Assembly (NCBI GenBank): GCA_003990765.1
Contig: RBNJ01000055.1
Span: forward strand, 1-45,980
Origin: Jimgerdemannia flammicorona
Taxonomy: Eukaryota
Length of the DNA: 45,980 bases
Direction of reading: 5' to 3'
Position numbers and translations under genes: made by a program. Positions 1-40,775 of the stretch are shown here, piece by piece; the first letter of the stretch is position 1, and every line of letters starts with the position of its first letter. Below the pieces are notes generated by a model that was given only the letters and a program-made list of their open reading frames with translations, was not told the origin of the DNA and made no database searches.

Positions 1-72
<72 letters not shown>
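1..72 (+). repeat. Poly-A run at window start, probably a sequencing/assembly artefact
   Basis: 72 consecutive A directly abutting the middle of a protease-coding region. Confidence 0.7.
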
Positions 73-77
<5 letters not shown>

Positions 78-2629
78 AAGGCAATTGACTGCCTAGACTG
101 GGATATTGAAGAGTACACAAGATGGTCTATGTTACAGCAGATAGTACATGAGCTACCCCCTTTGGCAAAATCCAAAAAGTCCCCAATTAAGATAGGAGGA
201 GCTACTATTCTAGTAGATGTGATTGTTACAAGTGCCACTAACTATGATATCCTTATTAACAACTAATGGCTTTACAAGATCAAGGCCATCATTGACCTCA
301 ATACCCAGAAGATGCAGATCAACTATAGAGGAAGAAAGGTATGAGTCTCTATCAATGTCTATAAAGGAGTTCTATCAGACAAAGAGAAAGGAGATAAAGA
401 GGACACAGAAGTCTTCATACACTTAGTGAATAAGAATAAGAATAAGACACCCAAGCTCACAGATGACCAGTGGTACAACAAGATCATTGATGGCTATGCC
501 CTATAAGGAAGATACCCCCATAGTACTAGGATGTACTGCTCTGAACACCTAAATAACTACTGGTCCTATATTAGTGAAGTCAGGAAAATCTGCCAACAGA
601 AGCATGAGCAAGGAGCTGCTGAAGTAAAAAGGAAAGCCAAAGAAGATGACCAGCCCCCAGAGCTTCAAGTTGACAGTGATGATAAGGAGGAATAAGAACC
701 AGACATCACCCTCAAGGTCAAGAAGTTTTACCCCAAAGCCAAGATCTCAGAATATAAGACTGAAGGAGCTATAGGAATAGACCTTGCCAGTATTCAAGAT
801 ACTATCCTTGAACTACAGACCACTACTCTACTTGGCACCAGAATTGGAGTCAAGTTGCTAGAGAATTATCAAGATCAGGAGCAGTCTGGCCAAAAGCAAA
901 ATCTCAGTTGAAGGAGGAGTAATTAACCCTGATTACACTGGCAAGATCTTTCTCATAGTCAGGAATCACAACTCCACCACCCCATTCAAAGTTAAGAAGC
1001 ATGACAGGATTGGTCAGATGCAGATCCATGAAATCAAGAAGCCTAAGATCATCAAAGCCATCAAACTCATCAAGACCAAGAGAGGAGAACAAGGCTTTAA
1101 ATCTACTGGAAAGGAGCCTATGCTGCCACTAAGATTACTGAACTTGAGCATAAGAAAGACAAGGACCAGAACAAACACACATATACTATTGGAGAAACTT
1201 TTCTCTAGAAGAACAACTTCTCAAGATTCTGCACCAGAACGAAGGAGTACTTGCTATAGACTTCAGAGATATCTACAATCAAGAACCCAAGTACTACCAT
1301 AAAGTTGACACTAGTGATACCAAGCCCATCTACTAGAAAGCCAGACCTATACCACCTGTCTACAGAGAATGGCTGCAAGCAGAACTCAAGAAAATGGAAG
1401 AAGCCAGAATTATCAAGCAAGCTATCAGTCTCTGGGCTTTATCTATTGTCCTTGCTCCAAAGAAAGGAAGCAAGTCTGGAGAGTTTGCCCCAAGACTCTA
1501 TATTGACTACAGGAAGCTCAATACAATCACTAAGAAGGATAGGCAGCCCTTACCAAATATTCAAGAAATTCTTACCACTCTTGAAAGTGAAGCCAAATAC
1601 TATCCTACTTCAGATCTGTTCTCAGGCTTCTATCAGATTGGTCTCACTCAAGATACCAGTGAGAAATCAGTCTTCATCACACCCGATGTCACCTATATCT
1701 ATCTGTAAATACCATTTGGAATATACAATGCCCTGGCAAGTTTTTAGCAAATGATGAACAGAGTCTTCAGCAATGAAATTGGAAAATGGCTCTTTGTCTA
1801 TATTAATGATGTGATCATCTTCAGCAACACTGTATAGGAACATGTCAACTATATATAGCTAGCTCTCAAGAAGCTCAAGAAGTATGGCCTCTACATTAAG
1901 CCCAAGAAGTGTAAGTTTACAGCTCAGGAAATCACCTATCTAGGATATCTTATCAATCAGACCAGAATCCACACAGACTCCATAAAGATTGAGGCTATTA
2001 CAGCCTATCCAAGACCCAGAACAACTACAGAAGTCTATGTCTTCCTTGGACTGGCCTCCTACTATAGAAGATTCATCAAAGAATACTTTAACATTGCAGC
2101 ACCTATCTATGAGCTACTGAAGAAAGAGATCAAATTCAAATAGACCAAGGAATGCCAAGAAACCTTCAATGAACTTAAGACCAGATTGACCCAAGCACCC
2201 ATCTTCAGAAGATCAGATTGGAATCTAGAGTTTATTCTGTAGACAGATGCAAGTGCTATAGGACTTGGAGCAGTCCTAGCTCAGAAGAAAAATGGATATG
2301 AATATGTTATCTCCTATATAAGCTGAGGTACCTATAGAGCAGAACAGAATTATGAGTCATACAAGCTTGAATGCTTAGCAGTAGTTTGGACAGTAGACAA
2401 GTTCCACTACTATCTAGCTGGGAAATACTTCACTATTCAAACAGACTATTCTGCTCTAGCCTGGCTATTCTACACTCTGAACTCTAAAGGAATATATACC
2501 AGATAGATCTAAAGGCTGCAAGAGTATGATTGTACTGTCAAGCACTGCCTAGGAAGAACCAATGCCAATACTGATGCACTCTCAAGGACACTTCAAAACA
2601 CTCCCATCAAGTCTATTCAACATGAATAA
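73..2629 (+). pseudogene. pol: Degenerate pol of element A (PR-Cys/His-dUTPase-RT-RNaseH), ending at TAA 2627-2629
   Basis: PIKIGGATILVDVIV, RGEQGFKSTG, YINDVII, TDASAIGLGAVLAQ, TDYSAL, NANTDALSR; many TGG>TAG/TGA and CAA>TAA stops. Confidence 0.9.
712..1110 (+). pseudogene. dut: dUTPase domain of element A (degenerate, with internal frameshift)
   Basis: KVKKFYPKAKISEYKTEGAIGIDLA, RSSLA, EGGVINPDYTGKI, DRIGQM, RGEQGFKSTG. Confidence 0.85.
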
Positions 2630-3818
2630 GGAGTTATTCTATAGATTAATCAGCTATCTTAGACAGTGGAAGATGCTCAACCACCTTGAACTTTGAACAA
2701 TCACCATTATCAACTAGACTTAGAAACAGTTTGAACTAGACAATACTATACTCAGAAAAGAAGGAAAGCTTATAATACCTGAATATAAGAAGTATCAAAT
2801 AATGAAGGAAGTATACAAACAAGGATACCTAGAAGGAACCAATATATATGATAAGGCAAGAAGAATTATATGATGGCCCAAGATGAAAGAAGACCTGTGC
2901 CAATTTGTCAAAGGGTATGATAAGTGCCAAAAACAGAAATAAGATCAGTAAGACCAGGCATCCAGGTCATTAAGAATTGAGCCTATCCCCTTCCACCATA
3001 TTACAATAGATATCATTATGCCACTATCAGTAATACTATTAGGAAACTATTATATTATAGTTATTGTAGACCTCTTTAACAAATAGATAGAAGCAGGAGT
3101 ATTATAAGAAGTCAATGCCCTCTCTATAGCTGACTTCCTGTACCAAGAAATCATCTACCACTACAAGATACCAAAGCAAATCACCACAGACCATGGTACA
3201 GAATTTATCAATAGATTCTATCAGATAATGTATCAGAAATACAGGATTCAGCACATCAAGACCACTGTGTACCACCCTCAAAGAAATGGACAGACAGAGA
3301 GAATCAACAAGACTCTCAAGAACATCCTGGTGAAGATCTCAGATATATATGAGAATTGGGATAACTACCTTCCAACTGTCCTCTCTATCTTATGAGATAT
3401 ATGGTCACAGAGTACACACTTTATCCCAAAAGAACTGCTCTTCAGAGAAGAAGATTCTGATGGAATCTCAGCCACAAATCTAGACCTAACTTGGAGACAG
3501 ATTGACTCAAAAATCTGGAGATTACACCAAATCAGGCAGAAGGCTGAAGATTACATCATTAAGTCACAAGCACTGATGAGAAAGAATATAGAAAAGAATT
3601 ACAAGATCCTAGAACCCATCCAAATTGGAGAAAAGGTCCTACTGTATCGAAATATAGTAGAAGCCTCATGGTTATAAAAACTGGAGCCTAAATAAGAAGA
3701 ACCCTTCTATGTGCAAAATATCAAGAGAACTACCTTCTAGCTTAAAAAACTCACAGGGACTATACTGCCTATTATAGTACACAGGAACAGACTCAAGAAG
3801 TACTATAAACCTATATAA
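2622..3818 (+). pseudogene. Integrase of element A as a separate ORF (399 codons, no net frameshift, several nonsense mutations)
   Basis: ATG at 2622 overlaps pol stop; HHCC-like region, TDHGTEF, HPQRNGQTERINKTLK, GPF/Y-like C-terminus. Confidence 0.85.
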
Positions 3819-4172
3819 GAGAAGCAAAACATGATGACTACCTATGAGGTTCTAGTCTGTGAATCATAACAGCATGTCCTGTGACCAGCAGGCAATCTGT
3901 CTGGACCATTCTCTAAGTGATATAGTACCAGCAACTACTCATCTGTAAGACTTTTGAAGCAAGAGGAGTTCAAACTATCAACTGATTGATCAAGATCAGA
4001 ATTAGGCCCTTGCTCTATATGAAGGGAACAATTCTTCACCATCATACCAAAATACATAGAGAAGACACTAGCCCATAAATACAACTTTTTGATCCCCTGC
4101 CAGAGGTTATGGAATTAGCAAATTTTTCAAGACTAGACCAATGAATAAGGATGTTCAAGAAGATCCTTATTC

Positions 4173-4182
4173 AGGAGGAAGA
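4173..4182 (+). other. Polypurine tract of element A
   Basis: TATTCAGGAGGAAGA|TGTAATGG matches the element B junction TATTCAGGAGGAAGT|TGTGATGG. Confidence 0.8.
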
Positions 4183-4439
4183 TGTAATGGTGATCTCAGA
4201 ATGATGACATTAGTATAAGAGACAGCAATTTCTTGCAAGCCACCAGATCAGAGTATAAGAAGATCATATAGCATGACTCACTCAGGTTATAAGATGAGCA
4301 ATGATGACCAACTATGAGTCATTGGAACCACAATACAGATATCTCAAGGAATATAAAAGAAGGATCAAAGAACTGCAGTAGCAGCAACTCAACAAGACCC
4401 ACTAATCCTGAAATAGCTCAAAGACTTATTATAAACAAA

Positions 4440-5327
4440 ATGTCTGCTGCTCACCAAACCTCAAGATCAAGAAACCACTAAGGCCCCTCAGTCTAGAAAA
4501 GGATGTTCCAAGATATCCAAAGAGCTATAAGGACCTACACTACAAGGACTCCTAGTGTCAACCTGGGTACTAGTGACCCTTATCATTATATCCTCTATTA
4601 CTATGAGATGGAAACAAGAATCACCATTGCTACTGAATGCCCTCAGATGTGGTAAGAATACAAAATAGGAAATCTCCTCTGCTGGGAATTCTCTCAAGCC
4701 AGCCCTCAAGAGCTACAAGATGTCACTTCTATAGATATATGTGAAATAAGGACAGCTAAGAAGATTTATCAGATCTTCAGGCATGCATTATGGTTGATCC
4801 CCAACTTGGAGTATATTAGAGTCTCAGACTTTAGAGATCTGTCAGCCCATCATATCAATGCACTAGAAGTCATAGTAGTAATAGAGGTCCAGTCCACTAT
4901 CACCCTCAATAGTGATGAGATAGAAGAGTTTCTGTATCCCATCCTCCAGGATAATCCAGATCAGTTTCTGCAAGGATTGATCTCAGTATTCCTAGATCTA
5001 AGTATCTAGGTTAGACCTTTCCAAGACCCCACATTTATCCCTTATTTTGTGGAAGAGAATCTTATAGACTGGAGAGCTCCAGATCTCCTCACTCTCCCTG
5101 CTACCACTGAATGTGATGATGTCATCAGTAATGATATCATCCCATGCAACATATGCAAAATGTATGATAAAACATTCATAGACCTCATCTCCTTTAAGGA
5201 CAGCAACAAAGATAAAGCCCCCATGGTTCTGAACTTTCTGCTCTAAGATCTTGATTATACTGAGTTCTTCCAGCATCCTTTTTCCATAAAACAGCTATTA
5301 CTCTACTTTCATTCTGATCTTATGTGA
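4440..5327 (+). pseudogene. ~295-codon degenerate ORF inside putative LTR A (U3); homologous to accessory ORF of element B
   Basis: Single frame from ATG 4440 through ORF-track segments 4794-5009 and 5049-5246 to TGA 5325-5327; stops are transition-type; frame conserved in the inverted copy. Confidence 0.65.
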
Positions 5328-5332
5328 CTCAG

Positions 5333-5414
5333 AATTATTCCAGCACCCTTTTTCTATATCACCAAAATTATTCCAACACCCTTTTCCTATATCACCAAAA
5401 TTATACCAACATCC
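5333..5414 (+). repeat. 33-bp tandem repeat (~2.5 copies) in putative U3 upstream of the TATA box
   Basis: AATTATTCCAGCACCCTTTTTCTATATCACCAA repeated. Confidence 0.8.
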
Positions 5415-5679
5415 TGAATCTATGCAACCATCTGTACTGATACTGGAACTTGGTAGTTTTCTGTGTTCCAGTATTTTATTTGGTTATTGGAATTTATATT
5501 TAGCTTTATATCTTAGCAACCATTGAATTATATTTTGTATAAATATCTCTCTTATTTTCTTTAAAATAAAGTCAGTCAAGTTTACTTACAGACAATTTCT
5601 TGTAAGCAATCTTAAGAGATAATAAGATAGTTTAAAATATAAGAAGTTTGAGCTTTTCTCCACTACCTTACTGGTCACA

Positions 5680-6804
5680 ATGGTTTGGTAGGCAACCTTC
5701 TGAGTCCACTTTCCACAATTATTACCCTCTCTACCTCAGGTTGGTTTGCTATATCTATTACAGGGCAGTGGAAGGGAGATAATAGTGCTTTTATTAGTGT
5801 CAGATTGGTGTCTTCTCCACTTTTTCATAGTTTCTGGTATCTTTGGCTATATCTAGAGTATATCTATTTTAGTGTGGTGCCTTCTTTCTTTTGCTGTCAC
5901 CAATAAGGTACTGTCTTCAGTATATCATGGGTTATATAGGGAGTCAGTCAACCTTAGGTGTCAAGTACTCAGTATAGGTTACCTGCAGGTCCTCAGTATC
6001 TGTGGTGGGGCCCTCTGGCTTTGGTGAGCTTCTCAGTAAGTATGGTTCTGGTATAGGTGACTGCTTTCAGGTGTTGTCAGAATGGGAGGGGAGATGGCCA
6101 TCACAGATAGGAGAAAGGGCAATAATGATGAACTAGTAGGGTGCCAGACTAGAGGTGGTCATCAAGACTGGGGCAAGTGCTGCTTTAGTGGGACCTTTTG
6201 ATTGGTGTAGAGCAGTTAGATAGTAGGTGTCACTCTCAGCTTCTTTTGGCAATTTGGCAGATTGGGCCCCAGTCATTGGGGGGGGTTGAGAGACTCAAGG
6301 CTACTCATTTCAGATGTCTTGGCTATACTCAACTGGAACTAGGAGCTGAAATGGCAATGTGATTGAGGCCTACAGGCTTGAGTAGTGGGGTATTGGAGGT
6401 CTCCTCCCATCTCATATGTAAGTCCTTTACTCATCTTGACTAGGAGAACCAGGCCCTACCCACTGTGATATACTTTGATAAGAGTTTTTCTTTACCTATC
6501 ATTCTCTTTGGGGTAATAGGGACCATTCTATTCAACTTGGGTATGGTTTATATATATATTGGGGTCTCAGGTATGTACTTTTGATCATTAGCATATGGCT
6601 GAGTTCTCCCTGGTGGTAGAGAGAGTATGGTATATAGAATGAGATATAGGCCAATATAGGCCCTACTGCATCTAGTATGGTTGAGCTGCTGGATAATAAC
6701 TAGCCTAGATTAATGGGGGGCAGTGCTTGATGGGTAGTGGGGGAGAGTTTTGGCCTATATAGTCTAGGTTCTCTTCCAATAAAAATCTGCAGGACATTGA
6801 GTCC

Positions 6805-6807
<3 letters not shown>
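5680..6807 (-). mobile_element. Possible degenerate non-LTR (LINE-like) retrotransposon C-terminal fragment
   Basis: Minus-strand translation near 6200-6280 gives PICQIAKRS*E*HLLSNC, resembling the LINE ORF2 CCHC/zf-RVT motif; many stops. Confidence 0.3.

Positions 6808-6836
<29 letters not shown>
6808..6836 (+). repeat. Poly-A run (29 nt) at a junction between two different elements
   Basis: Direct observation; may be a tail or an assembly artefact. Confidence 0.7.
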
Positions 6837-6838
<2 letters not shown>

Positions 6839-7182
6839 AATTTGAGAACTATAAGATCTTGGAAAGGTACTCTAATAAGAACTTACTTATAACAAACTTG
6901 AGTTAGTCTAAGAGATACACCTTGAAGAGAATCTGATATATTTGAAGGACTCAGTAACTACTATATGATAATATATAATATTTAAACTAAAATTTATAAT
7001 ATAATATATTATTATATTTAATAGTTTATAAAAAACTATATCTTTAAAAAATATTATATATTTTTTATTAAGTCAAATTTCATAAAATCTTAATTACTTT
7101 TAATTATATATAATGTGATGAGAAAATATTATAGTATAGTAGGATTATATATAAATATCTAATATAGTTATTCTAAATAAAT

Positions 7183-8122
7183 ATAGGATGACACTATTAC
7201 TGATGATGTCATTACATTCAGTAGTAGCAGGAGCTCTCCAATCTATGATATTCTCTTCTACAAAATAAGGAATAAATATAGAGTCTTGAGGAGGTCTAAC
7301 CTAGATACTGGGGCCTTGGAATACTGAGAACAATTCTTATATGAATTGATCTGGATTGTCCTGGAGGATGAGATACCAGAACTCTTCTATTTTATCACTA
7401 TTGAGAGTAATAGTAGACTGGACTTCTGTGGCCACTATGGCCTCCAGTATATTGATACAGTGGGCTGATAGTTTCTTGAAGTCTGAGATCCTAGTATACT
7501 CTAAGTTAGGAATTAACTACAGTATATGTCTGAAGACCTGATGAATCTTCTTAGCTGTCCTTATTTCATATATATCTATGGAGATGATATCTTGAATCTC
7601 TTGGGGACTGGCCTGAGGGAACTCCCGGCAGAAGAGGTTTCCTATTTTATACTCCTGCTACATCTAGAGATATTCAGTAGCAATGATAATCCTTATTTCT
7701 ATTTTATAATGATAGAGAATATAATGATAAGGGTCACCAGTATTCAGGTTAAGACCAGGAGTCCTTCTTGTGTAGATCCTCATGACTCTTCTGATGTCTT
7801 AGAATATCCTTTTCTAGACTGAGGGGCCTTGGTAGTTCCTGAACCTTAAGGTTTGGTAAGTGGTAGGCATTTGTTTGTGGTAAATCTTTTGAACTATTTC
7901 TGTGAGCTTTTTTTAGATTGCTACTACTGTAGTTTCTTGATCCTTCTTTTATATTTCTCAAGATATTTGTCTTGTGGTCATAATGACTCATAGTTGGTCA
8001 TCATTACTCATCTTGTAGTCTGGATGAGTCATGCCATATGATCTTTTTATACTCTGATCTGATGGCTTGTAAGAAAAGGCTGTTTTCTGTAATAATATCA
8101 TTATTCTGAGATCATCATTATA
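7183..8122 (-). repeat. Inverted, diverged partial copy of LTR A (solo/5' LTR start) including the U3 ORF (7870 to ~7183)
   Basis: Reverse complement aligns with 4183-~5145; begins at the LTR-A first base; carries an 18-bp in-frame deletion. Confidence 0.9.
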
Positions 8123-8299
8123 ATATCTAGATCTATATAAAACTATTTGCTATTTTCAAACTATCCTAGAGCTCTCAAAATTATACCCAGATATACCTCT
8201 AGTTTCTGTATAATCCTATCTAAATAAAATACAAATATTTTATATATGTATATTTTATAATTACAGATATTATAATTATATAAAATAATTATTATCAAG

Positions 8300-9115
8300 A
8301 ATATAGGATGAAGACTATAGAATACAAGATAATAGTAATAATAACTTCACCTATAAGATAATAATAAACTACAAAATAATAATAATAGACTGAAAATAAT
8401 AATAGACTATAAGACAAAGATATTATAAGATAATAGAGTATGAGATAATAAATAGTAAGATAATAGACAGCAAGATAATAGATAGCAAGATGATAGATAG
8501 TGAGATAATAGATACCAAGATAATAGAAGAGCAACTAGATGATATAAAACTAATAAATGTATCTTATTAGATACTAAAATATAAGAGTTATTATAGGAAG
8601 CTAGAATATAGTAGGTTGTTCAAAAATGAGAAATCAGAATATAGTAGATCATTAGAATATAGTAAGTTATCAGAATACAGTGAGTTGTTAAAAGATAGGA
8701 AACTGGAATATAGTAGTTTGTCAGAAGAGAGAAAGTTGAAATATAGTAAGTTATTAAAAGGAGAAGTTAGAATATAGTAGATCATCAGAAGACAAAAAGC
8801 TGGAATATGATAGATTATCAGAATATAGTAGGTCATCAAAATATAGTAAAATGGAAATATAATAAGTCATGAAGTCAGAATATAGTAAGTTATCAGAAGA
8901 CAGAAAGCTGAAATATGATAGATTATTAGAATATAATGAGTTATTAAAATATAGTAAGATGGGAATATAATAAGTCATAAAGTCAGAATATAGTAAGTTA
9001 TCAGAAAACAGAAAGCCTGAATACAGTAGATATAGTAAGTCATCAGAGTATAGTAAGTCTTCAGAATATAGTAGATTTTCAGAATATAGTAGATTGTTGG
9101 AAAATAGTAGATCTT
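8300..9115. repeat. Degenerate AT-rich minisatellites (15-bp TAATAGATAGTAAGA-like, then 18-bp GAATATAGTAAGTTATCA-like units)
   Basis: Visible periodicity; explains the YYL- and LLYS-rich spurious ORFs. Confidence 0.8.
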
Positions 9116-9218
9116 TAGTTAGTGGTATAGAGACCTATTAATATAGAGTATAGTGGTAGTATCAGAGAGAGAGATAGCATCATTTAGTAAGTTATAAAGA
9201 TATTTATCAACTAGATAT

Positions 9219-9702
9219 TGTGACAGTTGATCCAAATTAGTAACATGAAACAGGGAAATTAGACATTTGATCACAGTATCTGAACCCAATTCCCGATATA
9301 GTATAGCCTTATAAATAGCAGTCATATTTCACAAGTGTAGAAACTTTAGCAACTGTAGAAATTCTACAGATGTAAAATATTTTACAATTGTAAAGATCTC
9401 AACAGATATAGAGGATTTACACTTATAGAAATTGACTCACAGGAAATGTAGTTATAATTTAGCCACCTTATAGCTAGCAAAACTGTATAAATAACCCAGT
9501 ATCTTCAAGTAAATAAACCTCAGATCGAAATAGTTCAAAAGCAAAGAGATAGCAAAGGAACTAGTAAGCCTGCAGGCAGATACACTTCGAACTCACCACC
9601 CTCCCCTGCAACTTCAAGAGACTCTGCAAGAGTCAGAACAGTCAAGTTTTTAAGATACAGAAATCTGACATACTTTCAAGAGTAAGTGTCTACTACATTA
9701 CA
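9219..9702 (+). repeat. 5' LTR of element B (484 bp)
   Basis: TGTGACAG...CATTACA; ~93% identical to 15353-15835 by manual comparison. Confidence 0.97.
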
Positions 9703-9705
9703 ACT

Positions 9706-9722
9706 TGGTGCCCATTGGCTGG
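9706..9722 (+). other. Candidate primer-binding site TGGTGCCCATTGGCTGG
   Basis: TGG 3 nt after the LTR end (complement of tRNA CCA); cognate tRNA not identified. Confidence 0.6.
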
Positions 9723-11740
9723 TGATTCAAGACGAATCCCTCTTTATTGATGATTTAGAGCAGTATGCCACTGTAAGGACCCTGACAGCAGCACAGCAAG
9801 TAGCCCTCATGCCCTTCAGCCTACAAGGCCCTGCCAGAGCAGCATTCACAGCCGCAACCCATATAGGAAATGATGCCGATGCTATACTGACAGCATAGAA
9901 GACCTGGCTCCAAAATACATATTACACAGACGAGATCAAGCAAGCCCTAAAGGATCAGCTCAATACAACATGCCAAGGAATGAGCAAGAATCCAAATACA
10001 TTCTATACTAGAATTCGATATCAGATAATCCTTGCAGATTATACTGCTGCAATCCGAGATCAAGTAGCTGAAGCAACCTTCATGAAAGGAGTCCATCCAG
10101 AAATAGCCATGGCCATCTGCTCATTACCAGTAATTCTGGATCTGCCACAGAAGGTCACCTATGCTCAGCGATACTGGATAGCCAGACACCCACAAGACCA
10201 TATGATGGAGAGAGTTACAGGAGTCAGAATTGAGGCACCTAAGCCAACCAGCATTATCTCCACCACAATGATCAATCGAAACACACCTCAGCCCAAAGCT
10301 ACAGAGCAGCAGAAGAACAGCGACCCTATGGAGGAACTTGCAAAAAGGTTTGCTGAAATGACTGCCCACCTGGGAGACATGGTAAAAGAAATTCAAGGAA
10401 GAGACCACCGCTCTGTCCAGAAGTTTGCCGCCACCTCAGACAAGAAGAAAGGTACCTGCTATACTTGTGGAGAAGAAGGCCACTACTCCTATGAATGTAT
10501 GAGCGAAACCAAGCACAAGGCTCAACTAAGCAATGCCACATGAAACAAGGAGCAGACCAATACAATTACCTTCAAGGAGATTGGAGATTCTGAAGAAGAA
10601 GAATGGGAGGCCTATCCTGCCCAGACCACTAAGAAGGATGCTCGCATAGAACCCTACAAGAGACCACCAGGAAGACCCAAGAACCTGGTGGAAAAGCAGA
10701 TGGAAACTGCCACAGAAAGCCAAGCCAAAGAGATGGACCAAGATACAGAGCTGGAGCAAGCAGTTCAAGATATCATCCGAGGAACCACTCCAGCCAGTGA
10801 AGGAGAAAAAGAAAAGAAGCTTCGCAAGACCAAGACCTTCAAGTATGATATCTTCAAGGACCTCAGTCAACAAAAAGTCAATGCAACCTTTGGACAGCTC
10901 GCAGAAATCCCAACATTCAGACAGCAAATGAGATTTGGACTTGCCGAAACAACAAAGGAACAAGGATGGAAGATAACTGAGGCCAATAATGCTCAAGAGG
11001 ACTCAGGAGAAGAAAGTGAGGACAATCACAAAACTTCTGCCTATGCAACATGCCAAATTGAAGATAGAATCTTTGAAGCCATCATTGATACAGGAGCAGG
11101 AGGATGTCTCCTCAGCAAGAAGGCAGCAGACTGCCTAGGTTGGGATGTAGAAGAAGCAACTAAGCTGGTATTCGTCACAGCTGATGGCACAAGAGCCACA
11201 CCCCTGAGAAAGATCCGAGATGTTCCCATCAAGATTGGAGGAGCAACCATCCCAATAGATGTAATTGTAACCAACACCACCAACTATGACATCCTCATTG
11301 GCAATCAATGGCTTCACAAAGCCAAGGCAGTAATTGATCTCAACACCCAGAAGATGCAGATCACCTACCAGGGACAGAAGATACGAATTCCCATCAATGT
11401 CAACAAAGGAGTCCTGCCCGACATAGAGGAAGAAGAGAGTGAGCAAGAGGAAGCTTATATGGTGACTACTCCAAAGAAGAAGAAAGTCGGATAGATGAGT
11501 GAAGAAGAATGGTGCAAGAAGATCGCAGAAGGCTATGCACCACAAGGAGTCTGTCCTCACAGGATCAAGATGTACTGCATGGAGCATGTCAATGACTGCT
11601 ACCAGTGCACCATCAGAATCAGGAAGATCCACCAGGAAAGAAGGCAGAAAGCTCTCGAAAAACAGACCAAAGAAGAAGAGAAGGAGGAAGATGATGAACC
11701 ACCAGCCCTCCTGGAGAATAGTGATGATGAAGAAGAAATC

Positions 11741-12155
11741 AAGATCAAGATTTGAAAGATCCACCCTGATGCAGTCTTGCCAGAATACAAGTCAGAAAAT
11801 GCAGCAGGAATGGACATTGCTACAGTAGAAGAGACCATACTGGAACCCCAGACAACCACCCTACTTGCAACTGGATTGGAGATGACCATCCCAAAGGATC
11901 ATGTTGGGATTCTCAAGACAAGAAGCAGCCTGGCTAGAAGTGAAATTACAATTGAAGGAGGAGTCATCGATTCAGACTACATTGGAGAAATTCTACTCAT
12001 CGCTAGAAACCACAATCTTACAATCCCATTTCCAGTCAAGAAGAAGGACCAATTGGTGCAAATGTTGATCTTTCCGATCCTACAACCAAAGATCATAGAA
12101 GTTAAGAAGCTGGGGGAAATGAGAAGAGGAAAGAAAGGATTTGGATCCACAGGAA
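11741..12155 (+). pseudogene. dut: Trimeric dUTPase domain between protease and RT in element B
   Basis: All five motifs: AGMDIA, RSSLA, GVIDSDYIGEI, DQLVQML, RGKKGFGSTG. Confidence 0.95.
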
Positions 12156-13666
12156 GAAGAGTATTCGCCAATACCAAGATCACCGAACTCGAGCATAAGA
12201 AGGAGGAAAACATGAGCAAGCACAGCTACACTATCAGAAATGAATTTCTACTCAAAAAAGAACTCAAGAAAATACTCCACGAATTCGAGGATGTCCTTAC
12301 CACAGATTTCAAGAATATCAAAGGAAAGACCCCACACTACTATCACGAAGTAGATACTGGAGACACTGAACCAATTTATCAGAAGGCAAGACCCATCCCA
12401 CCAGCCTACCGAGAATGGCTCAGAGAAGAAATCAAGCAGATGGAAGAAGCTGGCATCATCAAAGAAGCCAGCAGCCCCTGGTTCTCATCTGTTGTACTGG
12501 CCCTGAAAAAAGGTAGCAAGCCTGGAGAATTCGCCCCAAGACTCTGTGTCGACTACAGAAAACTCAACATGGTTACTAAGAAGGATCGCCAACCACTGCC
12601 CCTCATCAATGACATCCTCATAATACTGGGAGATGAAGCACAGTACTACAGCACCTTAGACTTATACTCAGGATTTCACCAAATCGGACTCACAGACACA
12701 GCAAGCAAAAAGTCAGCTTTCATCACTCCAGATGGAACCTATGTCTACCTGTGAATGCCATTCGGAATGTGCAATACACCAGCAAGCTTCCAGCGAATAA
12801 TGAACAAAATCTTCTGCTATGATATGGGAAGATGAATGATGGTCTATGTCAACGATGTAATCATCTACAGCAAGACACCCAAGGAACATCTGCAGCACAT
12901 ACAGCAGATAATGGAGAGACTAAGACAATATGGTCTTTACACAAACCCAAGAAGTGCAAGTTTGCAGAAATTGAGATCTCCTACCTTGGCCATATTATCA
13001 ATCGAGATGGAACACACATGGACCCCCTCAAGATACAAGCAGTGGCAGCATACCCAAGACCCACCACTGTTACAGAAGCCCAAGCCTTCATGGGACTCAC
13101 CTCCTATTATCACAGATTTATTAGAGGATTCTCTAATATTGCGGGACCAATCTATGAACTTAACAAGAAGGATACCAAGTTCCAGTGGACTGGCAAACAA
13201 CAAAAAGCATTCGACGAACTCAAGGTCAGACTGACCCAGGCACCCATCCTCAGAAGACCTGACTGGACCCAAGAATTCATCCTACAGACTGATGCAAGCG
13301 CACAAGGACTAGGAGCAGTCCTAGCTCAAAAGAAAGATAAAGTGGAGTATGTCATTGCATACCTCAGCCGCGGAACCCAAGGAGCTGAAAAAGAATATAA
13401 ATCCTATAAGTTAGAATGCCTCGCAGTCATCTGGGCTGTAGAAAAGTTCCACTACTACTTGGCTGGAAGGCACTTCACCATCCAAACAGACCACTCAGCT
13501 CTCACCTGGTTACTGACAACTGGACAACCCAAAGGAATCTATGCCAGATGGATAATGAAGTTGCAAGCTTATGATGTAACCATTGTACATCACTCTGGAA
13601 GAACCAATGCTAATACCGATGCCCTCTCGCAGACACCCCGAAGGACCCCACCCCAACAAAATTACC

Positions 13667-14869
13667 ATGAATAAGGAGCTCTACTATGGAATTATTACAT
13701 ATCTAGGACAGTGAAAGATGCCCCAACATCTGGAACAATGGACACAAATGATTATCAACAGAATATGGAAACAATTCGAAACTGACAGAGAAATACTGAA
13801 GAAAGGAAAACTACTAGTCATACCAGAACACAAGAAGGAGCAAGCAATGAAATCAGTACATGAACTCGGCCACCTAAGAGGAACAAATACATATGATAAA
13901 GCAAAAAGAACAATGTGGTGGCCAGGAATGGAGGAAGACATCAGACAATTTGTCAAAACCTGTGATAAGTATCAGAAACAGAAACAAGACCAATGAAATC
14001 AAGCCCTAAGATTAGCACACATAGAACCAGTACCCTTTGCCCACATAGCAATGGATATAATTGGCCCACTACCCCTGATATTGACTGGCAACTGATATAT
14101 CATTGTCATTGTGGATCTATTCACAAAATGGATAAAGGCAGGACCCCTCAAGGAAGCTAATGCACAGTCAATTGCCGATTTCTTCCACAAAGAAATCATC
14201 TGCCAATTCAAGACCCCAATGCAAGTAACCATGGATAGAGGAACAGAATTTGTGAACCAGTTCTTTGAGATTCTCTACAAAAAATACAAGATCCAACATA
14301 TTCAGACTACCACCTATCACCCTCAAGGAAATAGACAAGCAGAAAGGACAAACAAGACTCTCAAGAATGTTATTGCCAAGATCTGTGATAACTATGAAAA
14401 CTGGGATCACTATCTGCCAATAGCATTATCTGCTCTCCGAGATATCTGATCACAAAGTACCCACTTCACTCCTCGAGAAATGCTGTTCGGAGAAGAATAT
14501 TCTCAGGGAACCCTATCATCCAACGGAGATGCTGTATGGAAATATGTGGACATGGAAATATGGAGACTACACCAAATCAGGAAGAAGGCTGAGGATTACA
14601 TAACTAAGGCGCAGACACTACAATAGAGAAATGCGGAAAAGACCCACAAACCCTTAGAGATTATCAAGATAGGAGACAAAGTCCTGGTATATCAGAATAT
14701 GGTTGAAGCTTCATGGTCACGAAAACTGGAGCCCAAGTGGGAAGGACCTTACCTTGTGCAAGATATAAAAGGAACCACCTTTTGGCTATGAAAACCCTCA
14801 GGCACAATCATCCCCACTACCATCCACCAAAACAGACTCAAGAAATACCATGACCAGCCAACAAAGTAA
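13667..14869 (+). pseudogene. Integrase of element B as a separate ORF (401 codons; no chromodomain)
   Basis: HELGH...TCDKYQ zinc-binding region, AMDIIGPLP, MDRGTEF, AERTNKTLK, WEGPY; ATG 13667 overlaps pol TAA 13672-13674. Confidence 0.92.
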
Positions 14870-15311
14870 TACAGCTGCCCTCAAGATCACTAGTGCTGCC
14901 CAATGAGCCATAGAGAGACAGTGGTATTCCACCAAACCACCAATAATGGAGGAATCCTTTGATAGTATACAGAGTATAGTCCAGACCCACCTGTCACGAA
15001 TTTTGCACTTCAAGGCCTACCGGATACAAACCGAGTTCCAGGAGTACTTCAAGCTAGGATAACTACTGAATTCAAATTCGAGGATAGGAAAAGAAGACTG
15101 GATCAAAGAATGTCAGCTCTCCTACACTCAGATCACGATCGCCAAGAGAGTGCACAAATTATTCAAAGATGATGAACCAGCTTTAGCTCATCTCCGTGAA
15201 GTAATTCCGGGGGATTTCGGACAAATCAGAAGACAACATTGGAAGAACGTAATGGCGCAGATCATACAGTACAAGGAGATACAAATTGTAGAAGCCTGGG
15301 AGTTCGAGTGA
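14850..15311 (+). pseudogene. Accessory 3' ORF of element B (153 codons, two C>T nonsense codons), unknown helical protein
   Basis: MTSQQSNTAALK...QEYFKLG*LLNSNSRIGKEDWIKECQLSYTQITIAKRVHKLFKDDEPALAHLREVIPGDFGQIRRQHW...WEFE*; fills the IN-PPT interval; start overlaps IN end. Confidence 0.75.
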
Positions 15312-15342
15312 ATAGGATACTTCAGAGATGAATCACCTATTC

Positions 15343-15351
15343 AGGAGGAAG
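15343..15351 (+). other. Polypurine tract of element B
   Basis: AGGAGGAAG just before the 3' LTR. Confidence 0.85.
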
Positions 15352-15352
15352 T

Positions 15353-15835
15353 TGTGATGGTTGATCCGAATTAGTAACATGAAACAGGGGAATAGACATT
15401 TGATTGCGGTACCTGAACCCAATTCCCGATATAGTATAGTCTTATAAATAGCAGTCATATTTCACAAGTATAGAAACTTTAGCAATCATAGAAATTCTAC
15501 AGATGTAAAATATTTTATAATTATAAAGATCTCAACAGATGTAGAGGATTTACACTTGTAGAAATTGACTCACAGGAAACATAGTCATAATTTAGCCACC
15601 TTATAGCTAGCAAAACTGTATAAATAACCCAGTATCTTCGAGTGAATAAACCTCAGATCGAAATAGTTCAAAAGCAAAGAGATAGTAAAGGAACTAGTAA
15701 GCCTGCGGGCAGATACACTTCGAACTCACCACCCTCTCCTGCAACTTCAAGAGACTCTGCAAGAGTCAGAACAGTCAAGTTTTCAAGATACAGAAATCTG
15801 ATGTACTTTCAAGAGTAAGCATCCGCTACATTACA
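15353..15835 (+). repeat. 3' LTR of element B (483 bp)
   Basis: TGTGATGG...CATTACA followed by ATAT. Confidence 0.97.
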
Positions 15836-15839
15836 ATAT

Positions 15840-16525
15840 GTAATAAAATAAATAGAATAGTCATAAGACTTCAGTTATAGAGACATTCACTGACCAGATA
15901 ATAAAATATAATAAAATAAATAAAATAGTCACAAGGCTTTAGTTATAGAGATATTCACTGACCAGATAATAAAATAAAATAAAATAAAATAAATACATAA
16001 AATGATCATAAGGCTTCAATCATAGAGATATTCATCAATTAGATAATAAAATAAAATAAAATAAATAGAATAGTTATAAGGCTTCAGTTATAGAGACATT
16101 TACCAACTAGATAATAAAATAAAATAAAATAAATAGAATAGTTATAAGACTTTAATTATAGAGACATTCACTAACTAGATAATAAAATAAAATAAAATAA
16201 ATATGTAGAATAGTCATAAGGCTTCAGTTATAGAGATATTCACTAACCAGATAATAAAATAAAATAAAATAAATAGAATAGTCATAAGGCTTCAATTATA
16301 GAGACATTCACTGATTAGATAATAAAATAAAATAAATAGACTAGTTATAAGGCTTTAGTTATAGAAATATTTGCTAACTAAATAATAAAACAAAATAAAA
16401 TAAATATATTAAATAGTTATAAGACTTTAATTACAGAGATATTCACCAACCAGATAATAAAATAAAATAAATAGAATAGTTATAAGACTTTAGTCAGAGA
16501 GATATTCACCAACTAGATAATAAAT
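15840..16525. repeat. ~60-bp tandem minisatellite (~11 copies) with variable (TAAAA)n
   Basis: AATAAAATAAATAGAATAGTCATAAGGCTTCAGTTATAGAGACATTCACTGACCAGAT units; a partial unit at 9190-9218 shows element B inserted in the array's first unit. Confidence 0.9.
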
Positions 16526-18651
16526 AGAAATATACTTACTTTAGTTTTTGAGTACATCTATCTTCTGTCTAGTTATTATAGATAATATAGTAATGAATAG
16601 ATATGATTTTGAAATATACAATACTTATTTTATAATATAATATAGATATCAATAATTAACTCATCAAGGATTACAAAAGTATAATCAATAATACTAACTG
16701 ACTTACTATAGTCCTCAAATAGCTATCTTTGTATACTTATCCAGAGCATTAGGTCAAAATTCTTATAGATGGAGATAATGTATTATTAAGAAGCTAAATA
16801 CTCTCAAAACTCACATCTTCAACTCTGACAAGTAGTGTATTATTGTTGAGTTTTTTTTTCAATACAGAATATACCATAATTTCAAGACCTATCTGATCTC
16901 TTCTAATTGTAGGGCAGACAATTACTAGCTATCTGTATCATTAATGGAGATCTGCTTTATAATAAGCTATAGATGATCAAAGGTTGGGTTTTACTACTTC
17001 TAAATACTTACTATATCAATAGTATCATATTAAAACTCTATAGTAATAGTGAAGCAACTCTAGGTTCTATCTAAAACATTACACTACTTAGTGATAAACA
17101 ACTTAGCAGATTTTTGGATAGAAAAGAATTTATCTATCTATCTGTTACTCAATCTTTATAAAAAAACCTATACTCTTAGTAAAAAATATAAAAAAGAAAT
17201 ATAGTGTCTTCATGATCAGACTCTTCTACAGGCTCTCTAATAGGGCAAAGAGAGCAGCAATAGTGAGATATACTGCTCTAATCTCTTTGTGATATGTGAG
17301 TTATATTATCTCTAATATCAAAATACTAACTAAAGACAATTATATTAAAAGCTTGGTCAGTAGTATATATGGAGACTTGTTAATATAGATTTGAGGAGAG
17401 GATTTACTTGTGTATATATATAAGATAAGTAGAGAGAGAGAATGGGAGAGAGATAGTGAAATTGAGTATAGTAGATATAAATAAGAGTATAAGAGTAATA
17501 TGATTATAGAAGATATCTGACAACTCCATTTAATTCTATTCACTCAGTTCATTCTCACTTTTCTTTATCTTTTTATTCTATTCTATACTCATACTCTACT
17601 CCTCTTTCTCAAAAAAGAAAAAAAAACTCCACCTACTGACTGCTCAGAATTGTGATAATATTCTTCTTTAAGTATTAGCAGACCTATTAGAAAAACATAG
17701 TTATGTCATTGAGAATTGAGTCTGATGATAATAACTAAGTAAAGAATAGCAATAATATAAGTAGCTTCTAGTTACTATAAAAATATTTCCTGAATGATCT
17801 CTTAAGATATAAAGATACTAAATAAAATTCTAAGAAGTATTTATAGGGTAATTTCAGTAGTTCATTATTACAAAGTTGCTATAAAGTATAGTGATAGTTC
17901 TGGAGAAGGGGGAGAAGATTACTTGAGTTTGTCATTATCTTTCAAGAGCTTAGACAGACTCAGAAATCTCATTTGGAGAGTAATGACTTCACTCAGAACT
18001 ACTATTTGAAAATTATAAATCTGAGTACTATTCTGCTTAATGTTATCTATATTACTATTTAATAAAAATCTACATCTTATTCAATATAAGTAAAATACAA
18101 ATTTGAACCAGAATATATATTTATATTATGAAATTATTATTATACTATATTTTGAAGAGAAAAATCTATATACTGTAATTTATATCCCAAAACCTATATA
18201 TTACAATTTATACTGCAATTTGTATACTTATTGAAAGCAAAGCTATATATTAAATTGAAATCAAAGCTATATAATAATAAAAAAAGAAGTAGTATGCTGA
18301 TATTAAATTAAAGAAGCTATTAATGTTTTGACTGAAAAACACAAAAGTTATATATCTTTTTCACATCTAAGTATTTAGTATATTTTCAACATCACTCACT
18401 GATCTAGAATCAGATCTCTTACTATTTATATCTTTAGTAGTATATATAGTATATACTTTCTTTTGAAGTTAATCTAGTTCTAATTTAATCTAACTATATT
18501 TTTCCAATATTTTAATCTATGTTCTGTAATTTTTTCCATCTATCTTTTCATTTAACTTTAAGTCAATCTGTGATGTAAGATATTTTAACTGATAAAAAAA
18601 AAGATAAAGATCTAATAAGCTTGAATATCTAGAGAGATGTCATTTTATAGA

Positions 18652-18951
18652 ATATAGTTATGAATGCAATTCAAACTTCAGCAAAGTGGCTGAGAGCCAC
18701 TTAACATTATGTGGAACAATTATGCAATTTCCCCTTGGCAGACTTAGTTTAGCTCATTTCATGCAGTTTCTTGTCCCTTTCTATGCCAAAGATAACTTAG
18801 CTAGTGGTGTTTTAAAAATATGCCAACCATTAATGTGAGTTAGTAACAATGTAATCAGTCCAGTGACTGAGTATTCATTGCATCTCAGCTAGTCAGATAT
18901 ATACTATGCCAAGTTGCAATTAGTTGCTAGTATTTACAATCAGTTCACGTA
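18652..18951 (+). repeat. Split direct repeat A1
   Basis: ATATAGTTATGAATGCAATTCAAAC... repeated at 23127. Confidence 0.93.
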
Positions 18952-18962
18952 CCATATTCACA

Positions 18963-20283
18963 ATGCCCCCAATCCACACTCAGTCTCATAGTCCTTTGGA
19001 ACCAGCTATAGCCCCAAGACTGGTTGCCCCCCTAGCCCCCTTACATGAACCTCACCCCTTCCCCATTCCCAATCTATCTGGCCTATGTGCTTGTTGCAAA
19101 GAACAGCTAGTTGCACTGTGTCACGAACATTATCTGCCAGTCGAAGGTCAAAAAGCCACACTAGTTATGCATCTCAACTCGCACCATCCAAGTCCCAACC
19201 CTCTACCTCAGCTGATTATTGGAGAGCAAGCTAAAGATGCTCTTATTGAATGCTTAATCTCCACTTTAGTTGGGTGCCTTGCAACACATCCATCCATCAT
19301 ACTGACGGGCCCCAACTTAATTACTCCACCAGTATCAGGGCTACTGGTGGGCTTGTCACAGGCAATTCCTCTACCAGCCACTACTCCTCCCTCAGCCATA
19401 GCCCCCTTCATGCTGCCACCTCCCATGACAAGGTTGATGTCGCAATCACTGCCAAATTTGCAAAGTAGTGAGTCTTCCTCATCTCTCATTTCAGATGCCG
19501 TACTTCGATGGAATTGGGTACCACCCGACTTGCTGGCATCACTAGATGTGGGCGACTATCAGATTCTATCTGAATTGACTGGCAGCACTCTTATTTCATA
19601 ATCAAGCAGCTGCAAAAAAGTAGATATATACATGCCCGACCACGACCTAGATCTACCACTGTAGCTTGAAGCCATCTTTAATATCCGAGGTGCTCTACTG
19701 GCTCTGGGTACCACCTGATCGACCTCACATACATCCTATGCTCCTCAACTTCTTGCCCATGCAATCTTTATCATTAAAGCGATAAATGATCGTTATGACT
19801 AGGTGGCACTTCAATGCTTTGACTGTCAAGTTCGTATACTCAAGGTCTCTTTCTCTGACTTGGACATTGGCAATCCAGACATAGTTCGCTGTACATTCGA
19901 GACAATCATTGGCCAACCTTCCTCAGCACCCTTAGCATACCAATGTCACTCTACATTCTCCTATGCTAGATCTCATACAGTGGGAAGTTCATCAACTGCC
20001 CACCCGGCTGGCAGCCCAAAACCAGTCTCATCCACCAACCTCTTGTGCTTTCGATGTGGGGTGTGGGGACATACTGTCAGCTCCTGCACCCTAAACCCCA
20101 CTCCAGCATCCTACTTTCCCATTCCAGTCAGACGATCCTATCTACCCAGATGGTGCAGCAAGCTTAGTCTGTCATAACTTTAATGGCTCTAGTTGCTCCT
20201 ATCAAAACTGCAGTCGAGCATACATATGCCTCTTCTGCTATGGACCTCACACAGCCCTGGCTTGCTCTGCTCGCCATGGCTAA
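18963..20283 (+). pseudogene. Ngaro ORF1 (gag-like): N-terminal SAP-like motif, CCHC knuckle, C-terminal CCCH-type zinc fingers
   Basis: LSGLCACCKEQLVALCHEHYLPVEGQKATLVMHL; CFRCGVWGHTVSSC; CHNFNGSSCSYQNCSRAYICLFCYGPHTALAC; stops and a frameshift. Confidence 0.8.
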
Positions 20284-22015
20284 TCTCTCGATTCCCCCCA
20301 CTTCTAGTCACCCAACCACCCTGTACCATATTAAGGAGTGGAAAAGGGTACTGCATTTGCATCCAAACCAATCACTCATTCAGTACCACCTAACAGATCT
20401 CTATCACGGTTATTAGCACGGAAATCACTCTCACCCTGAGCTTCACATCAACCTCATATCCAACAATCTTACCTCTGCTTACCAGTATCAAGAAGTTCTC
20501 TCTACCAATATTCTCACCGAGCTAGCTGTGGGTCGCTATCTTGGCCCATTTTCATCTCTCTCCTCCATACCACCAGAATTCCGCCCCTTTCACAATGCAC
20601 CCCTTGGTACCATTCCTAAGAAGCACTTGTCCAAATTTCGTACTATACAACATCTATCCTTTCCCTACAGGAGTTCAGTCAATGACAGAATCAATCCTAA
20701 GGAGTTCTCAATCTAGTACCAGTTCATTCAAGCCATTATTCTCCTTCTCCTCTCAGTTGGCTCTACTGCGTTCTTCTGGAAGGCATGGGCTGATGCCTTC
20801 TGCACCATCCCAGTACACTGCTCCAATTGGGCTATGCAGAGTATCTGCTGGCTTGGTCTTTTCTTCCTCGACATGTTCCTCTCCTTTGGTCTTTGCTCCG
20901 CTTCCTTTATCTTCACATCTCTCATGGACCTCTTTACCTGGATCTGTATTCAACTGTATGATCTTCCTAACTTGGGCCATTTCGTTGATGACTTTATCTA
21001 CGTCACACCTCTGTCTAGTGCATTCTCCTCCTATAATCAATTTCATGCTACTGTATCTCGATTTGGCCTCCCACTCAAACCCTCCAAAGATATTCCTCCT
21101 ACTCCAACTATAGAGTATGTTGGCTTCATTCTCGATACTCCAACAATGATGATTAGTCTCCCAATAGAGAAACGCACATGCATTCTCACCTTACTAGCAT
21201 CATGGCTTACACTGGCTCAGCAGACTCAATCATACCATCTATGTCTGCATTCACACCATAAAGCTCAATCACTCTCGGGCCATCTTATACACATTGTTCA
21301 AATACTTCCAGATGGGAAGGTGTTTTGTGATGGCATTATTCACTTCGCTTCCTCTTGAAAACTGCCCTATATAGGGCAGCATTTTCCACCTCCTTGACTA
21401 GCCACCGACTTACAGTGGTGGTATGATATTCTACACTCATGGCCAGGTCATCACCTGCTCTGCCATTCTGAGTGGCTCAATTGTGGTCCGTTTATAGATG
21501 CATCTGGGACACTTGGTGCCAGCAGCCTGCTGGGCCAACACTGGTGGAGTACTCATTGGGCTCTCTCCTTCTTAGATCTGAATGGCTATGATATATTCTG
21601 GAAAGTAATATTTGCCATTTGGGTCCCATTGGTGCTCTGGGGCCCCTTGTTTCATTCTCAATGTATTATTCTCTGGTGTGATAGCCAGCCCTGTGTTGAA
21701 TCGTTGACCAGTGGTCAGGCATGCCATCATCCTCTTGTCAATGACTTACTTTGTCGTATCATTCTCTTACATCTCAAAATTGGATTCGAAATTCAAGCTC
21801 GTTACATCTCTTCAGCATCTAACCCTGTGGACCCCTTATCTTGCCATATACTTCCTCCACATCCCCAGGACCCATTGCCTATATTAATTACATCTCTCTT
21901 TGGCTTCGCCATCAATTCGACACCTGCCTCTACCAATGCACCCACACTCGAATGGGTAACTTCCAGTCAGGTACCAATTCTCTACACTGATTTCTCAACT
22001 CCTGCAATATCGTAG
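20276..22015 (+). pseudogene. Ngaro ORF2: reverse transcriptase + RNase H
   Basis: PLGTIPKK..KFRTIQHLSFP..SVND, LSFGLCSA, HFVDDF, IEYVGF, FIDASG, WCDSQPCV, NPVDPLS. Confidence 0.92.
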
Positions 22016-22938: not shown

Positions 22939-22971
22939 GAGCCTAAAACCACTTCTCAGGCCCACAGTTTT

Positions 22972-40720: not shown

Positions 40721-40775
40721 GGGGTAATGCCGGGTTTGAGGTAGGAAAATGGAAATCACGCGCTCAAGGGCTTAC

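Follow-up and report, generated by a model that had tools for sequence, protein, structure and literature searches.

Accessory genes that reside in, or overlap, the U3 (unique 3') region of the long terminal repeat (LTR) are a feature of complex retroviruses, namely, sag of mouse mammary tumour virus (MMTV), nef of human immunodeficiency virus (HIV), and tas/bet of the foamy viruses. Here we describe an open reading frame (ORF) that appears to have a comparable place in a retrotransposon. It is in a stretch of 45,980 nucleotides (nt) of contig RBNJ01000055.1 of Jimgerdemannia flammicorona, referred to as the window, whose numbering is used throughout, and it belongs to element A, one of two related retroelements, A and B, that are within the first 16 kb of the window. 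The explanation that we favour for the data as a whole, and which we consider probable, is that this ORF is a defunct copy of a real accessory gene, that it lies wholly in the U3 of an LTR of 1.58 kb, and that it is related to ORF3 of element B. By analogy with sag, nef, and tas/bet, the coding sequence of the A-type gene would be 3' of the polypurine tract (PPT) in the U3, would be duplicated in the LTRs, and would need a subgenomic message. In its acidic tail and basic N-terminus the A-type protein resembles transactivators in a general way only. The sequence, family, and fold searches gave no likeness of it to Sag, Nef, or Tas/Bet, and its element is a Ty3/Gypsy element without env.

Additional ORFs have also been described outside the retroviruses. 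In the available text of PMC5408684, the bdelloid-rotifer families Juno, Vesta, and TelKA carry an ORF3 beyond gag-pol, between pol and the LTR, and they have a dUTPase between protease (PR) and reverse transcriptase (RT) as well as an integrase end of the GPY/F type that lacks a chromodomain. Fungal Ty3/Gypsy elements with an 'add. ORF' of unknown function are reported in the available part of PMC2864245, where PosPlaTy3-5 of Postia placenta has its dUTPase between PR and RT, an arrangement reported for basidiomycete elements. As far as these two partial sources go, the rotifer and fungal additional ORFs are described between pol and the LTR, whereas the A-type gene is inside the LTR, and in the available text of PMC5408684 neither 'within the LTR' nor 'into the LTR' occurs. 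Phrase searches of open-access text for an ORF within, inside, or encoded in an LTR returned only retrovirus or unrelated papers, and no precedent was found in them for a complete conserved protein gene wholly inside a Ty3/Gypsy LTR. The gene family and its two positions are solid, and they are new to annotation.

Conservation and position of the ORF in element A

The accessory gene is genuine and conserved, and the copy in the window is decayed. The gene is taken to be real because uninterrupted conserved relatives exist in several sequence clusters. A word-indexed protein search returned five proteins at an expectation value (E) <=0.01 among 342 candidates, with E from 1e-105 to 9e-37. One of them, P0001, is an uninterrupted protein of 271 amino acids (aa) with 65% identity across 91% of the query (E 1.1e-105); the identity of the ORF to P0001 and P0002 is 65-70%, and a second lineage, P0008 and P0010, has 323 aa and is about 55% identical. 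When 1.84 billion representatives were searched exhaustively with a profile, five proteins, four of them new, reached E <=0.001, and P0026, P0028, and P0029 from this search are 47, 40, and 27% identical to P0001, respectively. The intact relatives span 174-342 aa and their identity goes from 65-70% over the whole ORF to about 27% for the most distant. Every relative is an unnamed environmental protein from the European Nucleotide Archive (ENA) or the Joint Genome Institute (JGI), on contigs of 0.5-2.4 kb, and no cellular homologue was found among the 1.84 billion representatives. Conservation is block-wise, with 10 invariant columns across 11 sequences. The blocks come in the order of a helical N-terminal half, a second block, WNP.L.DNPDQ...F.GP.IR...PYFVEEN.IDWR, and a variable acidic tail that ends in LNF.

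Translation of 4440-5327 reproduced the string that had been given for this stretch in an earlier note, made from the letters alone, which read a frame of about 295 codons here. The long frame stands but its length does not. Codon 269 (5244-5246) is a stop that falls where the intact relatives have their C-terminus (...LNFLL), and therefore the gene of element A has 268 codons, and 5247-5327, which is past the natural stop, is excluded. The ends of the relatives match the frame of the window at both sides, since they start with MPA... at the same methionine and end with LNF.L. Premature stops are at codons 14 (4479-4481), 19 (4494-4496), 72 (4653-4655), and 190 (5007-5009), and these four compare with 11, 17, 20, 23, and 29 stops in the remaining five frames of 4440-5249. 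A profile that was built without the rows from the window matches 4503-5243 at E 4.5e-112. The features of element A, of a second and inverted copy of its LTR, and of element B are as follows.

72 to 3823, plus strand: internal region of element A, Ty3/Gypsy, 5'-truncated by the window edge and riddled with stops
2502 to 3826, plus strand: integrase of A (Pfam Integrase_H2C2, E 1.6e-07; rve, E 5.7e-10)
3825 to 4172, plus strand: spacer of A from the pol stop to the PPT, with no detectable likeness to ORF3
4173 to 4182, plus strand: PPT of A, AGGAGGAAGA, in a block, CTATTCAGGAGGAAG, that is identical in A and before the 3' LTR of B
4183 to 5762, plus strand: 3' LTR of A, 1580 nt, with a well-supported start and a putative end
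4349 to 4359, plus strand: TATA-like word GAATATAAAAG, about 88 nt 5' of the ATG of the ORF, a candidate internal promoter
4440 to 5246, plus strand: accessory ORF, quite likely U3-borne, 268 codons and a natural stop, with 4 premature stops
5328 to 5420, plus strand: about 2.5 tandem copies of a unit of about 35 nt, seen by sequence inspection, in the U3 between the ORF and the TATA box
5536 to 5570, plus strand: core promoter and poly(A) block of the LTR, with TGTATAAATA at 5536-5545 and AATAAA at 5565-5570
7183 to 8122, minus strand: second, inverted A-type LTR copy, 3'-truncated, whose start at 8122 is a decayed TG start, TATAATGATGATC
9219 to 15836, plus strand: element B, a structurally complete Ty3/Gypsy relative
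14850 to 15311, plus strand: ORF3 of element B, 153 codons with 2 premature stops

Element A (72-5762, plus strand) is interrupted at its 5' end by the window edge, and the nucleotide alignment of its 72-3806 with 11114-14851 of B, about 3.7 kb, gave 67.7% identity. Element B has direct TG...CA LTRs of 484 nt each at 9219-9702 and 15353-15836, which are 94% identical over a 300-nt reference stretch, a primer-binding site (PBS), TGGTGCCC, at about 9706, a PPT at 15343-15351, and ATAT on both flanks as target-site duplication; in A, the PPT and one LTR are inside the window. The Pfam domains of B are the zf-CCHC zinc knuckle of gag, dUTPase, RVT_1, RT_RNaseH, Integrase_H2C2, and rve, in the PR-RT-RNase H-integrase order of Ty3/Gypsy elements, and A has Integrase_H2C2 and rve. 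The dUTPase of B (PF00692, E 4.6e-25) is placed between protease and RT, no chromodomain match was found in B with Pfam, and all the genes of B are interrupted by stops. Because of the domain set of B, the integrase domains of A, and the alignment of A with B, both are therefore Ty3/Gypsy elements of the dUTPase-bearing kind. Their closest pol relatives are metagenome proteins with <=47% identity, and the taxa from the ESM Atlas for the RT/RNase H region are mixed, namely, Oomycota, Ascomycota, Streptophyta, and Chordata.

The 15 bases of CTATTCAGGAGGAAG, which are the PPT and its lead-in, end at 4181 in A and are followed by TGTAATGGTGATC in A and by TGTGATGGTTGATC in B. Since this PPT block and the TG start are common to A and B, the LTR of A starts at 4183. 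The block was not found before the 5' LTR of B nor before the inverted A-type copy. About 45 nt after the PPT in A are homologous to the first 45 nt or so of the LTR of B, and the inverted copy starts exactly at the first base of the LTR of A (8122); the flank beyond it is unrelated and contains neither PPT nor pol, which is what a 5' or solo LTR should show. On the other side of the ORF, the arrangement TTAGC..CTTAGCAA..TGTATAAATA..AATAAA..CTCAG is common to both LTRs of B, to A (5490-5575), and to a metagenome contig, L001, and this promoter and poly(A) block is about 290 nt downstream of the ORF in A and 177 nt in L001. The LTR of A would end with ...CTATTACA at 5762, compared with ...CTACATTACA in B, which gives a 6-bp terminal inverted repeat, TGTAAT/ATTACA, and AATAAA is separated from the end of the LTR by about 190 nt in A as in B. 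The ORF starts 257 nt past the first base of the LTR and ends about 290 nt before the TATA box, and the order is PPT (4173-4182), TG (4183), ORF (4440-5246), and TATA box (5536-5545), which is that of an ORF resident in U3, between the LTR start and the TATA box. The A-type ORF is not in the position of the ORF3 family, between the pol stop and the PPT. The U3 of A is composed of about 45 nt homologous to B, about 1.25 kb with the ORF, and then the promoter block common to B. The earlier note had placed the ORF after the PPT, within the LTR, and before its TATA box, and the PPT and TG start, the inverted copy, the promoter block, and the terminal repeats all agree with this.

The inverted copy also bears on the gene itself. 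The arms, 4185-5145 and 8120-7183, are 78% identical, and the ORF of the inverted copy runs from an ATG at 7870 down to about 7183 with the frame kept and with seven stops in all. Codons 14 and 72, which are stops in A, are sense codons here, the stops at 19 and 190 are common to both copies, and five extra stops are its own. It has an 18-bp in-frame gap at A position 5079 and reads KKIHQVF. All this had been noted before, as a kept frame, an in-frame deletion of 18 bp, two stops of A that are sense, and KKIHQVF, and all was reproduced. The profile built without the rows from the window matches the inverted copy at 7181-7807 (E 5.9e-97).

Relatives in other collections were few. The genome contigs gave 0 relatives out of 12, the viral contigs gave 0 out of 65, and the metagenome contigs gave one, L001, from 223 pattern matches. 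In a soil-metagenome DNA run (0.09 share of words), 3000-6700 is covered completely by 2434 short contigs with a likeness of >=80%, which shows that the repeat family is abundant in the soil run; the contigs, at about 150-200 nt, are too short to define the LTR ends. No RNA run with words of the A family was found among the sequencing runs listed.

The conclusions that the ORF is a gene and that it is in the U3 have each to be weighed against an alternative. If the ORF were a chance near-open frame and not a gene, its frame would have been kept because the decay consists of transitions without indels. Over 952 aligned columns the copies indeed differ almost wholly by substitutions (166 transitions and 34 transversions) and by just 4 indels, and therefore the retention of the frame between the copies is weak evidence alone and proves nothing. 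However, a chance frame does not account for uninterrupted relatives of 174-342 aa that are in several clusters and are conserved block-wise down to about 27% identity, nor for 4 premature stops against 11-29 in the other frames. In our judgement this alternative is already refuted by the relatives from the word-indexed and profile searches, and we give it practically no credence. The differences between the copies at codon positions 1, 2, and 3 are 41, 33, and 65 (139 in total; chi-square 12.0, 2 degrees of freedom, p ~0.0025), and therefore part of the divergence between the two copies arose under coding constraint; against this, the excess could be shaped by the sequence context of mutation.

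The position in U3 would be lost if the segment 4183-5300 were internal, that is, a long 3' untranslated or accessory region, and the true LTR were short and started downstream of the ORF; 4173-4182 would then be a relic or a second PPT and the inverted copy a fragment truncated by chance. It is in favour of this that the LTR of B is just 484 nt long, that there is no A-type element with two LTRs in the window, and that beyond the start of about 45 nt and the promoter block the putative U3 of A is unalignable to the U3 of B. Two further points weigh against the U3 position. Only one LTR of A is seen, since the window edge cuts A and the second copy ends at about 7183, beyond which a transition-tolerant local alignment scored 340 compared with a shuffle mean of 302 and a maximum of 351, which is not significant. 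In addition, the 3' end at 5762 is deduced from its B-like end and an equal length of the U5 (unique 5') region, and MAFFT left the ends unaligned. But the stretch from the stop of the ORF (5246) to the TATA box (5536) has no purine-rich tract followed by TG, the first 45 nt or so after the PPT are homologous to the start of the LTR of B, and the inverted copy begins at the same TG without PPT or pol, for which a random fragment would need a coincidence. We therefore consider an internal segment distinctly unlikely, and it is quite likely that the ORF lies in the U3 of a 1580-nt LTR.

Relationship to ORF3 of element B

ORF3 of element B overlaps the end of pol in the +1 frame, ends 31 nt before the PPT of B, and is interrupted by premature stops at codons 19 and 71. 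Intact relatives exist for ORF3 as well; 10 were found in a set of 14 candidates, and P0016, with 153 aa, is the closest match (69% identical, E 2.8e-63). The A-type gene and ORF3 are alike in that both are on the sense strand, 3' of pol, in dUTPase-bearing Ty3/Gypsy elements, that they have a helical domain in common, and that neither is in Pfam. They differ in that ORF3 has 153 aa, overlaps the end of pol, and stops before the PPT and outside the LTR, whereas the A-type gene has 268-342 codons, an extra conserved block, and an acidic tail and is wholly past the PPT in U3.

The earlier note had aligned the two ORFs by eye and had suggested a profile comparison of the ORF at 4440-5327 with 14850-15311. 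With hhalign, the broadened A-type profile A3 and the ORF3 profile A2 matched with a probability of 90.2% and E 1.5e-6 over 114 columns (about 14-150 of the A-type protein and 28-141 of ORF3). The real pair scored 47.4, compared with 20.8 for the best of 60 column-shuffled profiles; a reversed profile scored 21.9. In six-frame searches of the window, the best non-self match of each family's profile was the ORF of the other family. In an independent MAFFT alignment the motifs QEY, AK+IH.hF, and ...DF line up between the A-type ORF and ORF3. In the ...A.AH...V... stretch, AIAHLQGV of P0029 and IIAHINYV of P0028 are nearest to ALAHLRGV of ORF3. The alignment by eye becomes significant at the level of profiles only; pairwise it is weak, and it holds for the N-terminal half only. 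The N-terminal domain of the A-type protein is very likely, as judged from these comparisons, to be remotely homologous to ORF3 of B.

It is also conceivable that the ORF in the LTR is unrelated to ORF3, being a host or foreign gene that was captured separately and inserted into the U3, and that the likeness is compositional or due to a common helical pattern. The pairwise signal would fit this, since the single sequences from the window gave a BLASTP E of 0.063 with 22% identity over 82 residues and a profile against the single window sequence gave a probability of only 16%. The same is true of the confinement of the likeness to the N-terminal half, since ORF3 has nothing that corresponds to the last 120-190 residues of the A-type protein, and of the insertion-like look of the stretch with the ORF, which is flanked by U3 parts homologous to the U3 of B. 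The case for homology is weakened further by the narrower A profile, which matched the ORF3 profile with a probability of 66.7%, and by the shallowness of both profiles, whose effective number of sequences (Neff) is 1.8-2.0. However, 0 of 60 shuffled profiles came near the real pair, the best non-self matches in the window are reciprocal, and the motifs of P0029 and P0028 are close to that of ORF3. Moreover, both genes are on the sense strand and 3' of pol, the two elements have 67.7% identity in pol, and the 1.84 billion representatives gave no cellular homologue. Separate capture is thus very unlikely in our view. The spacer between pol and PPT in A (3825-4172) gave no significant sign of an ORF3 remnant, with a nucleotide score of 21 against a shuffle mean of 19.2 and a maximum of 28, and an hmmsearch E of 0.047 (Z=1).

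Homology with ORF3 being the preferred reading, one gene family would be on either side of the boundary of PPT and LTR in lineages A and B. This had also been proposed in the earlier note, as a family that sits before the PPT in one lineage and inside the LTR in another, and it is supported by the relatives, by the position of the PPT and TG, and by the homology of the profiles.

Decay and neighbouring sequence

The ratio of observed to expected CpG is 0.01 in A (72-5762), 0.28 in B, 0.32 in the element at 19000-23000, and 0.95 in the non-repeat part (29000-45980). This pattern indicates repeat-targeted C-to-T decay, and the decay of A is older than that of B. In the soil run, the differences at the variant places with the best support are mostly A>G and T>C, the reads having G or C in place of an A or T of the window. 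The loss of CpG and these G and C letters in the soil reads thus mark the copies in the window as old and decayed by transitions, in a family with intact members elsewhere. Classical ascomycete repeat-induced point mutation (RIP) was not adopted as the mode of decay because the ratio for TpA in A is just 0.92 even though that for CpG is 0.01, and the decay is described only as transition-dominated with total loss of CpG.

An 8-mer, CTAGATAT, at 8123-8130 and again at 9211-9218, precedes the inverted A-type LTR and the 5' LTR of B, respectively, each in its own orientation. It may be a shared target word, or it may be due to chance in the AT-rich satellite between the LTRs, which is at 8585-9129 and consists of AGAATATAGTAG-like units of about 18 nt. 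Poly(A) runs are on the plus strand at the start of the window (1-71) and at 6808-6840. The stretch 5763-6700, which adjoins the end of the LTR of A, is itself a high-copy sequence in the soil run, where its summed depth goes up to 1836, has no protein-family match, and may be the tail of a non-LTR retroposon; the six frames of 5763-7181 gave zero matches to Pfam. AT-rich minisatellites flank or are near the retroelements at 15752-16532 (about 68-77 nt) and 25546-26323 (about 61/111 nt). Further downstream, an element at 18652-23420 is bounded by direct repeats of 294 nt that are 95% identical and has a weak tyrosine-recombinase match at 22483-22935 (PF00589, E 0.0048); it may be a DIRS/Ngaro-like retroelement. 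A tandem array at 33138-42000 has units of about 3.3 kb with internal sub-repeats of about 0.93 kb that are 98-100% identical, is in DNA with normal CpG, and its ORFs gave zero Pfam matches. Among 36 other ORFs of the window there was just one weak match to Pfam, and a search of Rfam gave zero matches.

Proposed expression and role of the gene

In relatives, the intact A-type protein has 271-342 aa. Its N-terminal 50 residues are basic, with an isoelectric point (pI) of 12.0 in P0001 and 11.7 in P0008. The core of the A-type proteins is acidic and their tails have a net charge of -14 to -26. There is no transmembrane-like segment, since the maximum Kyte-Doolittle mean over 19 residues is 0.19-1.05 in nine members of the family (the usual value is 1.6). 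An env-like ORF3 of the errantivirus type was rejected because there is no segment like a membrane anchor and the proteins are acidic and soluble-looking. Pfam gave no match for the window ORFs (the A-type ORF and ORF3) and zero families at E <=5 for P0001, P0026, P0028, P0029, and P0016, and P0008 had one sub-threshold match (PF23304, GAE_BBS1, E 0.23, 12.2 bits compared with a cutoff of 27). A sequence search of the PDB with profile A3 gave 0 matches at E <=5. In the ESM Atlas the best feature score for the long ORF was 0.83 with template modelling (TM) scores <=0.33, which are within the range of chance. The AlphaFold2 model of P0001 had a predicted local distance difference test (pLDDT) value of 46.9, too poor for a fold search, and was not used. 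The model of P0016, an ORF3 relative, is a small helical bundle (pLDDT 67.2, predicted TM-score 0.61); with Foldseek it had no match in the PDB at E <=0.001 (best 1.3) and a best E of 0.28 in BFVD, and the highest Z in VIA-align wide was 6.1, as is generic for helical proteins.

The accessory gene of this dUTPase-bearing Ty3/Gypsy lineage would have been inactivated in the window by transition mutations, and how it would be expressed in an intact element can be proposed from its surroundings. Because the genomic RNA has U3 at its 3' end only, a subgenomic message would be required to make the protein. The TATA-like word GAATATAAAAG, 88 nt 5' of the ATG, may be the ORF's own promoter in U3, with AATAAA of the LTR as terminator, and each LTR, whether 5', 3', or solo, could then work on its own as a transcription unit of about 1.2 kb. 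The word is identical in A and L001 and 10 of its 11 bases are kept in the inverted copy, while the neighbouring columns diverge. The tandem units of about 35 nt in the U3 of A may have an enhancer-like role. As for the protein, we suggest tentatively, by analogy with the accessory genes at the 3' end of retroviruses, that it could be a trans-acting regulator of the element's own expression, as a transactivator or an RNA adaptor; a silencing antagonist or a particle-associated factor would be alternatives. A bolder proposal, which we regard as speculative and on balance doubtful, is that the LTR is a complete gene cassette consisting of the TATA word (4349-4359), the 268-codon ORF, and the poly(A) signal, that each LTR would express a trans-acting factor, and that the family has crossed the PPT boundary. 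Several points weigh against these proposals. L001 begins exactly at GAATATAAAAG, which limits the comparison of conservation upstream, P0028 has no basic N-terminus (pI 6.8), and the proposed function has no backing from any family, structure, or fold match in Pfam, the PDB, or the fold searches.

If the cassette is true, all members of the family would go on receiving the factor from solo LTRs, for example one that activates LTR transcription or blocks host silencing. Such a factor would be a 'public good', since its gene is in the section of a retrotransposon that persists when the rest of the element is gone. The crossing of the PPT boundary by the family, if true, would be a route to retrovirus-like 3' regulatory genes in simple retrotransposons. 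Siting of the gene in U3 doubles its dosage per element and leaves it behind in solo LTRs, and solo LTRs may thereby spread the gene, as the one truncated copy in the window suggests. A family of about 20 environmental protein clusters that had no name, domain, or fold match can now be annotated and tested. Two sister lineages that have one family on opposite sides of the PPT offer a natural experiment on the movement of accessory genes into LTRs.

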